A stretch of 63,419 nucleotides of DNA from a virus. Lineage: Duplodnaviria; Heunggongvirae; Uroviricota; Caudoviricetes. The first letter of the stretch is position 1. Each line of letters begins with the position of its first letter. Below are positions 13,988-57,289 of this stretch, in pieces. The translations under genes were made by a program, and so were the position numbers. The DNA lies in the IMG/VR virus record IMGVR_UViG_2579778871_000002; one strand, 5' to 3'. Under the pieces are notes generated by a model. It worked only from the letters and a program-made list of their open reading frames with translations. It was not told the origin of the DNA and made no database searches.

Positions 13988-14833
13988 ATGCTGGCTAAAG
14001 TCACTTTCCTGAGCTGTATAACGATGAGCGATTTTACTTTTTCTGGCTATGAATTGGCCTGCTTTGTAACACACTCCGGTCTATCCCGTAGCGCCGGGCA
14101 TATCCTGTCGCAATGTGCAAATCTAGCGGCAACAACCAGTGAATACTTCATTCACAAGCCTCACCGCCTGATCGCGGCAGAAACTGGTTATAGCCAATCA
14201 ACCGTCGTTCGTGCATTCCGTGAAGCTGTAAACAAAGGAATTCTGTCTGTAGAGATTGTTATCGGCGATCACCGTGAACGTCGCGCTAACCTGTACCGGT
14301 TTACACCATCCTTTTTGGCCTTCGCACAACAAGCCAAAAATGCGCTGATTGAAAGCAAATTAAAGATCTCTTCAGCGGCAACCAAGGTTAAAGCTGTTCT
14401 CGCTAAGACATTGGCTTTATTTAATTTTTTATCCACACCCCCATGTCAAAATGATACCCCCTCCCCCTGTCAGGATGACGTGGCAATAAAGAATAAGAAG
14501 TCACAAGTTAAAAAAACAAAAAGATCAGTTTCCGGCGGTGCCGGAACGACCAGACTCAAAAAATTGACTTCATGGATCGCTGAGGCAAAAGCAAAGGCTG
14601 ACAATCTGCGGTTATCCAAAAAACGCGCTCAAAAACATGAGTTCAAGCAGAAAGTAGAGGCGGCAGCGCGGAAATATGCTTACCTGAAGAACAAGCGTTC
14701 TCCTGATATTGGCGGGGTATCAAACTTCGATAATCTGCCGCATTGCATGACGGTAAACGAAGCTCTTAATGCGGTTTTAGCCAAAAATAAAGATAACGAA
14801 CAATGGGGTATACCGGCAGGATTCAGAGGGTGA
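13988..14833 (+). CDS. repL: lytic replicon initiator RepL (oriL expected inside)
   Basis: 281 aa; HTH-like segment LIAAETGYSQSTVVRAFREAVNKGIL; size and position match recalled P1 RepL. Confidence 0.65.
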   Translation: MLAKVTFLSCITMSDFTFSGYELACFVTHSGLSRSAGHILSQCANLAATTSEYFIHKPHRLIAAETGYSQSTVVRAFREAVNKGILSVEIVIGDHRERRANLYRFTPSFLAFAQQAKNALIESKLKISSAATKVKAVLAKTLALFNFLSTPPCQNDTPSPCQDDVAIKNKKSQVKKTKRSVSGGAGTTRLKKLTSWIAEAKAKADNLRLSKKRAQKHEFKQKVEAAARKYAYLKNKRSPDIGGVSNFDNLPHCMTVNEALNAVLAKNKDNEQWGIPAGFRG

Positions 14834-14883
14834 TAGATTGCTCTAATCTGGAGTCACCTGGCGTTTTCAGTTTGAGGTCGGAG

Positions 14884-15129
14884 ATGCAATCTGATTTTTT
14901 ACAGTTAGCGATCGCTTTTGCAGGATATGTTTGTATTGGCTTCTGTGTATACATGATCAGCCGAAAAATGCTTGTCGATATCGACCGCAAAGAACGAGCA
15001 GAGGAGATCTTAGTATGGATTTTCTTTGGCGCGGTCTGGCCATTAGGGATCATGTTTGCTGCAACATTTCTTCTGATGTGGATATTCACCCTTCCAGGTG
15101 ATTTCTATAGAAAAAAAGCCAGACATTGA
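14884..15129 (+). CDS. small membrane protein (track ORF 14803..15129; start chosen at SD-preceded ATG)
   Basis: Two predicted TM helices (LAIAFAGYVCIGFCVYMI, ILVWIFFGAVWPLGIMFAATFLLMWIF). Confidence 0.4.
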   Translation: MQSDFLQLAIAFAGYVCIGFCVYMISRKMLVDIDRKERAEEILVWIFFGAVWPLGIMFAATFLLMWIFTLPGDFYRKKARH

Positions 15130-15252
15130 TACAATCGTTGCGGGTGCTTGAGGCTATCTGCTTCAGGCATTACCCGAAAAGCAGATAGAAGAAAGCCCCA
15201 GATAACATTACGCGTCCTGCAAGACGCTTAACATTAATCTGAGGCCATATCT

Positions 15253-15459
15253 ATGCTTAGCATACGTAGATTAGCCTCTTACCGACCAAAAGGTCAAGGA
15301 GAAGCAGGCTATGAAGCAGCAAAAAGCGATGTTAATCGCTCTGATCGTCATCTGTTTAACCGTCATTGTGACGGCACTGGTAACGAGGAAAGACCTCTGC
15401 GAGGTACGAATCCGAACCGGCCAGACGGAGGTCACTGTCTTCACAGCCTACGAATCTGA
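15253..15459 (+). CDS. mok: Mok-like overlapping reading frame of hok locus
   Basis: 68-aa ORF in a different frame overlapping almost all of hok, as in hok/sok loci. Confidence 0.4.
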   Translation: MLSIRRLASYRPKGQGEAGYEAAKSDVNRSDRHLFNRHCDGTGNEERPLRGTNPNRPDGGHCLHSLRI

Positions 15460-15466
15460 AAGGTAA
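15311..15466 (+). CDS. hok: Hok/Gef family type I toxin
   Basis: 51 aa MKQQKAMLIALIVICLTVIVTALVTRKDLCEVRIRTGQTEVTVFTAYESER; matches recalled Hok (…[28 protein letters not shown]). Confidence 0.8.
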   Translation: MKQQKAMLIALIVICLTVIVTALVTRKDLCEVRIRTGQTEVTVFTAYESER

Positions 15467-15540
15467 GAGACCTGGCGGGGAGAGATCCCCGCCACTCTTC
15501 GTGTGTCAGGTATCCTCAATGCACCCTTTCCTCTCCAAAT

Positions 15541-15566
15541 AAAAAAGCTCCCGAAGGAGCTTTAAA
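15541..15566. terminator. bidirectional terminator between hok and convergent structural operon
   Basis: AAAAAA-GCTCC-CGAA-GGAGC-TTTAAAA. Confidence 0.6.
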
Positions 15567-15582
15567 ATACAAGGGATGACTC

Positions 15583-16092
15583 TTAATCCCACTCAATCCA
15601 GTTGTAGACGATACGAAGTGACGGGCGCACAGCGGCAGTCACATCTTCGGTACTAAAGTCGATTGCATCACTGTAGATTTTGCAGTCCAACATTTCAATT
15701 GTTGTAGCAGCTTTAGTCACAGCGTTAACCCCGGAAGATTTGGATTCAGGGGTCGCAGCCATCGTGATATCAACATAGTCCTTCGCCGCAATGCGATCTT
15801 TAATGAACTGAAGAATATCGCCTTCGATAGTCTCCACGCACTGGACCTGGATTTCCCCAGAGTTTCGAATTGGACCGTGCTGGTTGAACTTCACACCATT
15901 CGGACCATAGTCCTCCACATCCTCGCGGGTCATTTCAGGAATTTGCGACGTGCGAACCAGTACGCTGATATCTTCATGGCCTGCAAAAGTGAGCTGGAAT
16001 TCAGAAGATACCAGTCGTTCGCCTTTGGCCGCGTTGGCAGTATAGCGGCCCTTAATAAATTTACGGTTTCCCTTAGTGTTATTGTGCCCCAT
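15583..16092 (-). CDS. tail structural protein
   Basis: 169-aa ORF, last gene of minus-strand operon. Confidence 0.4.
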   Translation of the reverse strand: MGHNNTKGNRKFIKGRYTANAAKGERLVSSEFQLTFAGHEDISVLVRTSQIPEMTREDVEDYGPNGVKFNQHGPIRNSGEIQVQCVETIEGDILQFIKDRIAAKDYVDITMAATPESKSSGVNAVTKAATTIEMLDCKIYSDAIDFSTEDVTAAVRPSLRIVYNWIEWD

Positions 16093-21127: not shown

Positions 21128-22129
21128 TTAAGGCTTCGGCTTTTTATCGAGGCTCTTTCTAAGGATATGCCCAATCATCCTGTCGAGTTCTTCCTGTAAC
21201 TCTTTTGAGAGTCGATTAAACTCATAAGAAAATGCACGGCCTTTCACGCGCTTCCTTGCAAAGCGATCCTTGTCCTCAAATTTCCATAATTCAGTAACTA
21301 CGGACTTATCTTTAGAACCTTTATCCGTGAGTAGTGAGGCTTCCTTTGTTATCAAGCGCAAGATTTTATTTTTAACTTCATCTTCGGCCATTTCTTCAAT
21401 GGATAAGATGTCGTTTATTTCCGGGGATATGTTTTGAATAAGCTGATCAAACTCTAAATTCTTGTTCCCCATTTCGTCGCCAACAGCACAAAGCGTTTTG
21501 TAGTCCGAAAAGGTTAATTCCGACTGCACAGGGAAAAGGGCGACTAATTCTTCTGGAGCACTCGCTGCCTGGAGAGCACGTGTGACCTTCGCCTGAGATA
21601 GCCCTTCCTTGGCTGCAATATCCTTCTGACTCATCCCATCATTTTTCATTCGCATCAAACGCAGACCTATTTCTCGAATGCTGTGCTGCAATGCTGTCTG
21701 AACGTCTTTCGCTAAATTTTGCGCTTCCTGAACGCTGATCTCCTGGTCCGTGACTAAAACCCGCAACCCTACGTTCTCTAAGATGGCAGAAGCTCGACGC
21801 CGGGAACCATCCAAAATTTCAATTTTCCCTGTAGCACGTCTAACACCTATTGCAGGATAAAATTGCTGATGCTTAATAGTGCTTCGGATACTTTTTAATG
21901 ATTTTGGCGTAAGAGATGCCTGGTCACGACCGTTGTTATGCTGATCAACAAAGGTATCGCTTTCTACCTGATTCGGAGGTATTACCTCTTCAATAAATGT
22001 GGCCTGGCGACCTGTTGATAACTTGAATACCTGCTCGACTCGATCGCCAGAGGCTGAAGAACTATCAAATCCGCTTAATATTGAAGGATTAAGGGTTCGC
22101 CCAATTGTTGGTCTGTTTTTCTTTGACAT
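21128..22129 (-). CDS. parB: partition protein ParB
   Basis: 333 aa; sequence and length match recalled P1 ParB; downstream of parA. Confidence 0.85.
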   Translation of the reverse strand: MSKKNRPTIGRTLNPSILSGFDSSSASGDRVEQVFKLSTGRQATFIEEVIPPNQVESDTFVDQHNNGRDQASLTPKSLKSIRSTIKHQQFYPAIGVRRATGKIEILDGSRRRASAILENVGLRVLVTDQEISVQEAQNLAKDVQTALQHSIREIGLRLMRMKNDGMSQKDIAAKEGLSQAKVTRALQAASAPEELVALFPVQSELTFSDYKTLCAVGDEMGNKNLEFDQLIQNISPEINDILSIEEMAEDEVKNKILRLITKEASLLTDKGSKDKSVVTELWKFEDKDRFARKRVKGRAFSYEFNRLSKELQEELDRMIGHILRKSLDKKPKP

Positions 22130-22145
22130 GGGGGTTTCTTACTCC

Positions 22146-23342
22146 TCAGTTAGATCTGATAAATTCAATACGGTCAAAAACTGCTTTAGCAAAATCTTCC
22201 GCGGCAATTCGCGCGTTCTTCAATGCATCAGCACTACCAACATACGTTGCCGGGTTAGCTGAAATAACAGTGTCAAAAGACTCGCCGCAGCGTTCAAAAC
22301 CGTCAAGGCGAGGGAGGACGACATCAAGCATATCCCCACCAAACACTTCTTTAGCCAGGCTATGGCAATACTTATGGTCTGCCTTGTTACTCAACTTGGA
22401 CATAAAACCAATGTTAGTCGCAAGCTGGCACTCGCAGCCTTCATCCGAAATGAGTTTCACCAACTCAGGAAGGCGGGCAACGTATTTAAGCGATGAGTGG
22501 AAATCAACCGTTGCAGGCGGCAGAGGTGTAAACAGTATATTGGCCGAGGCCAAAGCATTTTTCAGGAAGGCGTCAAGGTGAGGACCACTATCAACGAGGA
22601 TAAAGTCATAATCGCTCTTCAGCTTATCAATCACATTTTCTTTCAGGACAGCATGGATGTTCTGACCCGGTAGATGCTCATTGCACAGCTCTCTCCAATC
22701 GGATGCAATAAAGGCATCGTCAATCGACGCAGGCATAACGTCAACCCCAGGTACAACAGAAGGAACAATAAACTCCTCTAACAGCTCTTCACGGCTTACA
22801 TTCTGCAACATAGCCTGTGCAGATGTTGCGTTTACGATACCAATAGAGTGTTTATGGCTTAAAAACATCGTCGCTGAAGATTGCGGATCAAGGTCAATAA
22901 CCAGAATCCTTAAATCTTCCATCAGAAGATGAGGGTGGGCACGCATTGCATGCGCCAGAGAAACCGTCGATACAGTTTTTGACACACCGCCTTTAAGATT
23001 GGAGATGAAAATCACATACGCTTCGCTGTAGCGATCCCGGTATTTTGGCACTCCGCGATGTTCATATATGTCAATGATGTTCTGAATTGACATCGCATAT
23101 TTCATTGAAGAGCCAGCAGGGCGTTTATCAAAAACATAACCCTTTTCTTCCATTTCACTTACGGCATAGTCAACGTTCGCTCGAGTCAGTAGAGGCAATT
23201 TTGCCAGTGCCGCTTTCGCATAGACCTGGTAAAACTCGTTCGCGTGTAGCTCATCCTTTTGCAACTGTACTTGTTCAGTCAGAACATTGAGCATTCTGTT
23301 TGCTCTTTGAGCAACCTTGTGAAGCTGGCTGGAATCACTCAT
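22146..23342 (-). CDS. parA: partition ATPase ParA
   Basis: 398 aa; deviant Walker A KGGVSKT; N-terminal HTH extension; matches recalled P1 ParA. Confidence 0.85.
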   Translation of the reverse strand: MSDSSQLHKVAQRANRMLNVLTEQVQLQKDELHANEFYQVYAKAALAKLPLLTRANVDYAVSEMEEKGYVFDKRPAGSSMKYAMSIQNIIDIYEHRGVPKYRDRYSEAYVIFISNLKGGVSKTVSTVSLAHAMRAHPHLLMEDLRILVIDLDPQSSATMFLSHKHSIGIVNATSAQAMLQNVSREELLEEFIVPSVVPGVDVMPASIDDAFIASDWRELCNEHLPGQNIHAVLKENVIDKLKSDYDFILVDSGPHLDAFLKNALASANILFTPLPPATVDFHSSLKYVARLPELVKLISDEGCECQLATNIGFMSKLSNKADHKYCHSLAKEVFGGDMLDVVLPRLDGFERCGESFDTVISANPATYVGSADALKNARIAAEDFAKAVFDRIEFIRSN

Positions 23343-56687: not shown

Positions 56688-56909
56688 ATGCAATCCATTA
56701 ACTTCCGTACCGCGCGCGGCAACCTTTCTGAAGTGCTCAACAATGTTGAAGCCGGGGAAGAGGTTGAAATCACCCGCAGAGGCCGTGAGCCAGCAGTAAT
56801 TGTCAGCAAGGCGACTTTCGAAGCCTACAAAAAAGCGGCGCTGGATGCCGAATTTGCATCCCTGTTTGACACACTGGACTCCACCAACAAGGAACTGGTT
56901 AACCGATAA
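56688..56909 (+). CDS. phd: Phd antitoxin
   Basis: 73 aa [73 protein letters not shown]; ATGA coupling to doc. Confidence 0.9.
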
Positions 56910-57289
56910 TGAGGCATATATCACCGGAAGAACTGATAGCGCTTCATGATGCGAATATAAGCCGCTACGGCGGCCTGCCGGGAATGTCAGATCCGGGTAG
57001 GGCAGAGGCCATTATCGGGAGAGTTCAGGCCAGAGTTGCCTACGAAGAGATCACCGACCTTTTCGAAGTCTCCGCCACCTACCTGGTGGCTACAGCGAGA
57101 GGGCATATATTCAATGATGCCAATAAGCGTACCGCGCTAAACAGTGCGCTGCTATTTCTACGCCGTAACGGGGTGCAGGTATTTGATTCACCTGAACTGG
57201 CAGACCTTACTGTAGGCGCTGCGACTGGCGAGATATCTGTATCTTCTGTCGCCGACACGTTACGTAGATTGTATGGTTCTGCGGAGTAG
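56909..57289 (+). CDS. doc: Doc toxin (Fic-fold kinase)
   Basis: 126 aa; [11 protein letters not shown] Fic-like motif. Confidence 0.9.

Follow-up and report, generated by a model that had tools for sequence, protein, structure and literature searches.

A probable hok/mok/sok toxin-antitoxin module in the variable repL-bplB slot of a P1-like phage-plasmid

We analyzed a stretch of viral DNA of 63,419 nt (IMG/VR record IMGVR_UViG_2579778871_000002, hereafter the window), whose gene content is that of a P1-like (Punavirus) genome. A variable slot of this genome holds a type I toxin-antitoxin module (hok/mok/sok, hokD/hokW subgroup) that is very likely intact and would provide extra post-segregational killing. 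Judging from the letters, the full unit would span ~15108-15526 and comprise a promoter, the mRNA elements tac, ucb, mok Shine-Dalgarno (SD), dcb, hok SD, 3' hairpin and fbi, and the antisense RNA Sok. A first-pass annotation of this DNA had placed a hok/mok-type type I locus at 15253-15566, between the lytic replicon and the tail genes. The type of locus, which agrees with Pfam and Rfam matches and with the location of every defining RNA element, and its position, with RepL upstream and bplB downstream, are both borne out; its extent needs correction, as the unit appears to start ~110-145 nt further upstream and homology to hok loci ends at 15526.

The toxin gene hok (15311..15466, plus strand) is the 51-codon Hok/Gef open reading frame (ORF) recognized in the first-pass annotation, and codes for the peptide MKQQKAMLIALIVICLTVIVTALVTRKDLCEVRIRTGQTEVTVFTAYESER. 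This covers all 42 positions of the Pfam profile PF01848 (HOK_GEF) with 78.7 bits (cut-off 22; E=2.4e-22), and matches phrog_251, 'MokW-like host killing', with E=5e-32. The NCBIfam Hok models match below their cut-offs (Hok subfamily 49.5 for a cut-off of 73, HokA 38.1 for a cut-off of 89). The peptide has an N-terminal transmembrane helix (hydrophobic residues 6-24), followed by TRKDLCEVRIR, Cys30 and Tyr47, and fits the pattern of the family, i.e. a transmembrane helix, a TRKxLCE...EV..F..YE core, and either a pair of cysteines or a Tyr codon editable to Cys. It shares 48 of its 51 residues with the HokD-type peptide of three other loci of our collection (L008, L009 and L012). This collection includes 47 Hok-encoding loci from genomes. 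A MAFFT alignment was made of 33 complete mRNAs, whose sources are Escherichia, Shigella, Kluyvera, Citrobacter, Pantoea, Photorhabdus, phage 933W and plasmid R1.

Concerning Tyr47, the seven nucleotides CUACGAA around it are those of the anticodon loop of E. coli tRNA-Arg(ACG), the natural substrate of TadA. The codon itself, TAC (15449-15451), lies within TACGAA, which is invariant in all homologues (33/33). It is in this context that Tyr codons of hok mRNAs are reported to be changed to Cys by TadA editing (bioRxiv 10.1101/2025.08.07.668861). A 3-bp stem flanking the codon (15444-15458) is predicted with covariation by RNAalifold, and the local hairpin folded alone gives 0 kcal/mol, with no stability in isolation. 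We regard the codon as a possible site of A-to-I recoding from Tyr to Cys, and as a lead only.

Upstream of hok, the DNA at 15142-15316 matches Rfam family RF01794 with 114.9 bits (gathering cut-off 59; E=9e-27). This family is named 'sok antitoxin', but the match is on the sense strand, and the consensus runs from the 5' end (+1) of the hok mRNA to the hok AUG. The model therefore identifies the hok leader, and is not evidence for the antisense RNA. Matches to three further Rfam families (CRISPR-DR46, ceN48 and sbrA) scored far below their gathering thresholds and were dismissed as chance.

A block-by-block alignment with the R1-type hok/sok locus places tac, ucb, the mok SD and ATG, dcb, the Sok promoter, the hok SD, the 3' hairpin and fbi, all of which are present in the window. 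The R1-type reference is 100% identical over 433 nt to many IncF plasmids; mechanism and element names follow the summary in PMC9841398. The predicted hok/mok promoter (15108..15135, plus strand; -35 TAGAAA, 16-nt spacer, extended -10 TGaTACAAT; 9/12 with TG in a consensus scan) ends 7 nt before the conserved 5' end of the mRNA (~15142). The translational activator element tac, GGGUGCUUGAGG (15142..15153, plus strand), aligns with the 5' end of the R1 hok mRNA and pairs with the fold-back inhibitory element fbi, CCUCAAUGCACCC (15514..15526, plus strand). Together they delimit the body of the putative full-length mRNA (15142..15526, plus strand), which is assigned by homology to hok loci and by its fold.

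Within this leader, the anti-SD box ucb, AAAGCCCC (15192..15199, plus strand), stands in the same register as in the R1 model (PMC9841398); it pairs with the mok SD in the predicted closed full-length form, and would be able to pair with tac in the truncated form. The mok SD, GAGG (15241..15244, plus strand), is kept upstream of the mok ATG in the homologues. The dcb element, GCCUC (15274..15278, plus strand), is part of an invariant GCCTCTT block and, in a constrained fold of the truncated mRNA, becomes the partner of the mok SD in the open conformation. The hok SD, AAGGAG (15296..15301, plus strand), is conserved and is sequestered in the full-length fold. Downstream of hok, a GC-rich stem-loop of 9 bp (15473..15494, plus strand) is conserved with compensatory pairs, and is expected to block 3'-exonucleolytic trimming, forming the end of the truncated active mRNA.

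The full-length fold (15142-15530) has a minimum free energy (MFE) of -157.7 kcal/mol, with z=-8.29. Both the MFE structure and the centroid pair 15142-15153 with 15514-15526, giving a tac-fbi helix of 12 bp with one bulge. In the MFE structure, 15195-15199 (ucb) is paired with 15241-15245 (mok SD), and the hok SD and AUG are buried. As modelled, the MFE of the full-length mRNA is a closed, untranslatable form.

The tac-fbi pairing that the first-pass annotation had suggested looking for is thus not only found in both predicted structures but also compensated across the 33 loci. RNAalifold recovers the helix, and column pair 4/435 is U-A in 18 loci, C-G in 12, U-G in two and C-A in one. Compensatory changes occur in 19 of the 71 predicted pairs, among them pairs of the 3' hairpin and of the stem targeted by Sok. 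This is in line with the covariation published earlier for the hok family (Gultyaev et al. 1997, as cited in PMC9841398). In Photorhabdus, where the bulge is absent, MAFFT shifted the 5' half of fbi by one column, so that only a 6-bp half of the tac-fbi helix can be counted column-wise. Duplex energies of own versus cross tac/fbi pairs, over 16 distinct combinations, were not discriminating, because a U in tac can pair with either A or G. Pair counts were used instead; one outlier in this comparison, L018, is a locus interrupted by an insertion sequence (IS).

On the opposite strand, a Sok promoter is predicted at 15268..15297, with a -35 TTGACC (15297->15292), an 18-nt spacer and a -10 TAATCT (15273->15268). 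Its blocks are positioned like those of R1 (TTGCGC-17-TATCCT) and of phage 933W (TTGCCT-17-TAACCT). The antisense RNA itself would be of ~75 nt (~15261->15187, minus strand), and the annotated sokW of 933W maps to 15261->15191. The predicted Sok begins with a single-stranded 5' tail complementary to the start of mok; a long hairpin follows (15245->15195), and then the U-rich tail UUUCUUCU. It folds with an MFE of -30.4 kcal/mol (z=-4.56), and its stem has compensatory pairs. The search for a minus-strand promoter and RNA proposed in the first-pass annotation thus yields predicted elements at the positions homologous to R1 Sok and to 933W sokW.

The mok-like frame overlapping hok, also seen in the first pass, is confirmed as an ORF of 68 codons (15253..15459, plus strand), defined from the ORF list and the alignment. 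As in plasmid R1, it overlaps hok in another frame, and it ends 7 nt before the hok stop codon. Its product has no NCBIfam, Pfam or PADLOC match. Compared with hokW/hokD-type loci, an extra T in GGTCAAGG (15292-15299) puts mok out of the hok frame; the same T turns the Sok -35 into TTGACC, which is an improvement, and lengthens the Sok spacer to 18 nt. It is shared with two near-identical copies, one from E. coli (L006) and the other from Kluyvera (L007). In relatives where this alternative frame is not used, it still stays open over 49 codons, so that the length of mok is in itself no evidence of selection.

Among characterized or annotated systems, the module is assigned by its sequence to the hokD/hokW/hokC group, which is found in prophages and chromosomes. 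The hokW/mokW/sokW locus of phage 933W (AF125520) and the Rac/lambdoid hok loci have 87-91% nucleotide identity to the window over exactly 15130-15526. In 933W the order of the elements is the same, tac and fbi are the same except for the bulged base, and the annotated sokW overlies the predicted Sok. However, mok of 933W shares the hok frame and encodes a Hok with an N-terminal extension (70 aa), whereas it is out of frame here; the Sok -35 is TTGCCT with a 17-nt spacer instead of TTGACC with 18 nt; the -35 region of the upstream promoter and the downstream terminator differ from the copy in the window; and hokW resides in an integrated lambdoid prophage, the window copy in a plasmid prophage. 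Mok is also in frame with hok in the chromosomal hokD/hokC-type loci and in Photorhabdus, unlike in the window.

Plasmid R1 hok/sok (parB) is the experimental paradigm of the family, and all its named elements can be matched in the window, including the predicted Sok hairpin and U tail. It is nevertheless a distant relative in sequence, as only the conserved blocks align and there is no megablast-level match. Its mok is likewise overlapping and out of frame, with 70 codons instead of 68, and its Hok has 52 aa instead of 51. The predicted Sok hairpin is longer in the window than in R1, with a 16-nt insertion with respect to the Rfam model, and the R1 tac-fbi stem is shorter than the bulged 12-bp helix found here. 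The carrier is a conjugative IncF plasmid in the one case and a phage-plasmid in the other. The K-12 hokD (relF) locus shares 48 of 51 toxin residues as well as the 3' hairpin and fbi. In contrast, K-12-type hokD loci (L013, L014) have no tac, promoter or Sok region, and L014 directly follows relE. As K-12-type hokD lacks the regulatory leader, the name "hokD" given by PGAP to the gene of P1-like plasmids reflects peptide similarity and not an orthologous locus. The K-12-type hokC (gef) locus L018, of the same family, carries an IS186-type element in the same 3' hairpin, whereas the window copy has no IS and keeps fbi.

Beyond the sequence elements, predicted folds, covariation and distribution established in this analysis, we infer from the R1 model transcription of both RNAs, processing of the mRNA, toxicity of the peptide and stabilization of the plasmid as follows. 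The weak promoter at 15108-15135 would produce a stable mRNA starting at ~15142. In its full-length form tac would be paired with fbi, the mok ribosome-binding site held by ucb and the hok ribosome-binding site buried, so that there would be no translation and Sok would be unable to bind. Slow 3' trimming to the hairpin at 15473-15494 would remove fbi; tac would then pair with ucb, and the mok SD would move into the dcb hairpin, allowing translation of mok and, by coupling, of hok. As long as the plasmid is present, the short-lived Sok (~15261->15187, minus strand) would pair with the mok start region and RNase III would destroy the duplex. Upon loss of the plasmid or arrest of transcription, Sok would decay first, the stored mRNA would mature, and Hok would be made, insert in the inner membrane and cause cell death. 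The window also encodes phd-doc (56688-57286) and parB/parA (21128-23342). It is a reasonable inference that hok/sok would represent a third maintenance function beside phd-doc and parAB for this unit-copy plasmid prophage.

The module lies between RepL (13988-14833, plus strand) and the tail-tube/baseplate gene bplB (15583-16092, minus strand), and is part of a 693-bp cassette (14848-15540) that has no counterpart in reference P1 according to BLAST searches against NC_005856/AF234172. Homology to P1 (NC_005856) ends at 14847 and restarts at 15541; in P1 the intervening ~1.8 kb hold rlfA, rlfB and pmgF. In P7 the slot is P1-like and does not contain the cassette sequence, and its genes are named rapA/rapB. 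The first-pass annotation was therefore right that the locus is not in the classic P1 annotation. Its suggestion that the gene might be present in P1 and unannotated does not hold, as the slot holds rlfA-rlfB-pmgF there instead: the module is absent from P1 and P7 beyond any mere lack of annotation.

The left junction of the cassette falls directly 3' of the 11-nt C1 repressor operator core (Orlf/Op55 of P1) ATTGCTCTAAT (14837..14847, plus strand), according to the P1 annotation of Orlf and the junction alignment; this core is context and stands outside the hok module. Nine exact copies of ATTGCTCTAAT occur in the window against 0.06 expected (at 14837, 27273, 30795, 44927, 44982, 47068, 58546, 63285 and 63362). 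The right junction is the first base of a hairpin, AAAAAAGCTCCCGAAGGAGCTTTAAAA, that is also found in reference P1. Its stem-loop AAAGCUCC-CGAA-GGAGCUUU (15544..15563, strand-neutral), which lies next to bplB in reference P1 and was also recovered by a terminator scan, is what the first-pass annotation had taken for the downstream terminator of the locus. The hairpin does exist, but it belongs to the P1 backbone and is not a hok terminator: it is terminator-like on the minus strand only, at the end of the bplB tail operon, while on the plus strand the stem is followed by 3 U. It is the sole candidate stop for plus-strand hok transcription, and the true 3' end of the mRNA is probably at or past it.

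The rest of the cassette consists of ORF81 (14884..15129, plus strand), which is not part of the hok module and encodes a small protein with two hydrophobic helices. It matches PHROG 3772 (phrog_3772; E=6e-54), to which PHROG assigns no function, and has no Pfam, NCBIfam or PADLOC match. It is also called as an ORF in RefSeq ("hypothetical protein"), and is restricted to P1-like phages, with a copy in SJ46 that is 44% identical and located at the same position after repL. The extended -10 of the hok promoter takes its TG from the TGA stop codon of ORF81. As it directly follows the retained C1-operator core, ORF81 may be expressed only once C1 repression is lifted. The 3' end of ORF81 includes a terminator-like hairpin (15086-15101), which stands shortly before the hok promoter.

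The cassette turns out to be widespread, which speaks against the suggestion of the first-pass annotation that the locus might be specific to this relative. In PLSDB, repL is present in 516 records, the cassette at >=80% coverage in 255, and the P1-type rlfA-rlfB-pmgF in ~100. The cassette is therefore the commonest state of the repL-bplB slot in P1-like plasmids, and the arrangement of reference P1 is a minority one; other relatives carry other cassettes in this slot. Full-length copies are 99.3-99.9% identical among the matches listed. In the phage collection, the whole locus is found in six records only, those of phi456, MH422554 (where the hok coding sequence is labelled "MokW"), MH445380, MH445381 and Ro157c2YLVW (two records). 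RefSeq/PGAP annotates the plasmid copies as "hokD: type I toxin-antitoxin system toxin HokD", beside the "hypothetical protein", and the hok gene of a P1-like element was already noted by Venturini 2019. The module is thus already known at the level of annotation, in hundreds of records; a literature search found no element-by-element anatomy and no functional test of hok/sok in a P1-like element. Copies identical or nearly identical to this enterobacterial hok also appear in unrelated genera, in a 275-bp contig of Acinetobacter idrijaensis (L015), in a 431-bp contig of Xanthomonas pisi (L027) and in the record of Actinobacillus phage vB_Apl-pPE4, and likely represent assembly contamination.

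Two types of disrupted copies occur among the relatives. In many P1-like plasmids, an IS4-family element has inserted into the loop of the 3' hairpin and is flanked by a duplication of 15478-15489. The element is annotated as IS421, with the transposase in either orientation (L054:3242-4580, L055:3078-4416), and is named IS186B by Venturini et al. With a 121-nt query over the hairpin and fbi, 226 of 453 plasmid records are intact and ~188 are split in two halves; sequence identity reaches 95% or more in 449 of these 453 records. The same IS end is found at the same hairpin in the K-12-type chromosomal hokC locus L018. As the insertion separates fbi from the mRNA, it is expected to disable killing: by the R1 model, it should abolish the stable pool of inactive mRNA, and hence post-segregational killing. 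In the second type, represented by 673R5 (L004:201-1978) and RCS47 (L005:2902-3168), the leader is kept only up to 15279 and hok is missing. Both the hok promoter and tac are retained in these remnants, as is the Sok RNA region, and the break lies in the spacer of the Sok promoter. A minus-strand PHROG 7522 gene, with an N-terminus similar to that of PmgF, takes the place of hok. The copy in the window has neither an IS nor a truncation, and both its ORFs are open.

Several observations weigh against an intact module acting in post-segregational killing. A simple promoter scan called no promoter on the minus strand, and the candidate Sok promoter matches the consensus at 8/12 positions with an 18-nt spacer, so that its assignment rests on homology. 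In the truncated RNA (15142-15497), the freed 5' end refolds locally into a metastable hairpin and not, when unconstrained, into the tac/ucb stem of R1. Enforcing this stem in the R1 register does yield the mok SD/dcb target hairpin, at a cost of 5.5 kcal/mol above the predicted minimum, so that the open form is plausible, yet not the predicted minimum. The cassette stops 14 nt after fbi and has no terminator of its own there, whereas native relatives (L008-L014) carry their own, ACCCGCTTCGGCGGGTTTTT, right after fbi. With this dedicated terminator missing, the 3' end of the hok mRNA and the kinetics of its trimming may differ; we do not regard an own terminator as defining the family, though the difference is real. 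The closest relatives are prophage and chromosomal loci, and the chromosomal loci tested reportedly gave no post-segregational killing (bioRxiv 10.1101/2025.08.07.668861). Finally, an intact module is evidently dispensable, since ~40% of the P1-like copies carry the IS between hok and fbi.

A role other than plasmid addiction is conceivable, although rather unlikely to be the main one: the module could act chiefly against phages, by abortive infection, or as cargo in the competition between elements, which would be compatible with an addiction role. An infecting phage that shuts off host transcription would cause Sok to decay, and Hok would then kill the cell. In line with this, RlfA and RlfB of reference P1, annotated there as possibly linked to lytic replication (L003:1703-2868), have matches to PDC-M04A/B, a candidate anti-phage system of PADLOC (E=1e-95 and E=1e-51), which makes the repL-bplB slot look like a defense or accessory hotspot, and rlfA/rlfB/pmgF are listed among eight regions that vary strongly between P1-like plasmids (PMC9603915). 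Exclusion of T4 by R1 hok/sok has also been reported historically (as cited in PMC13047441). However, in a re-test neither MG1655 nor BLR was protected from T4 by R1 hok/Sok (PMC13047441, 2026), a survey of Hok found that hok is not enriched near defense systems (bioRxiv 10.1101/2025.08.07.668861), and neither Hok nor ORF81 has a PADLOC match.

It is quite unlikely that the locus is an inert passenger. In this reading, a hok locus of prophage type would have entered P1-like genomes by recombination and lost its killing activity, as in the chromosomal hok loci of E. coli K-12. Its membership of a prophage and chromosomal sequence group, the reported absence of killing by the chromosomal loci tested, the missing terminator, the ~188 IS-split plasmid copies among 453, with the same site hit in hokC, and the remnants without hok in 673R5 and RCS47 would all be in keeping with such a decay. 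On the other hand, the window copy has two open ORFs and all regulatory elements, which are mutually compatible; its sequence hardly varies across hundreds of plasmids; and 42 of 45 diverse Hok peptides were toxic when tested, whatever their genomic location (bioRxiv 10.1101/2025.08.07.668861).

A more elaborate reading, which we also consider improbable, would see the slot as a swap site for conflict cargo, where hok/sok is the majority allele alternating with RlfA/RlfB, the main benefit lies in competition and not in simple stabilization, and insertion of the IS186-type element into the 3' hairpin repeatedly switches the module off. If this were the case, hok/sok would exclude hok-less P1-like rivals of the same incompatibility group or abort infections, and the orphan leader and Sok remnants in relatives could act as anti-addiction elements. 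Lastly, that these are chance ORFs in an intergenic spacer with no hok-like function has a negligible probability: the mok frame alone is statistically unremarkable, given the 49-codon open frame in relatives that do not use it, but the Pfam (E=2.4e-22) and Rfam (E=9e-27) matches, the 88-91% nucleotide identity to annotated hok/mok/sok loci and the covarying RNA structure rule this out.

An intact hok/mok/sok module remains by far the most probable interpretation of the locus. Its practical consequences are modest, as this is a standard module and no new kind of system, and the understanding of how hok/sok works is unchanged. It does indicate that reference P1 is unrepresentative of its own family in this region, about half of the P1-like plasmids of PLSDB carrying hok/sok, and that annotation transferred from P1, which has rlfA-rlfB-pmgF in the slot, will miss the module. 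Resistance genes are spread by P1-like phage-plasmids, whose persistence could be helped by an additional killer module. The intact, IS-interrupted and leader-only copies represent a natural allelic series for the role of hok/sok on a phage-plasmid.

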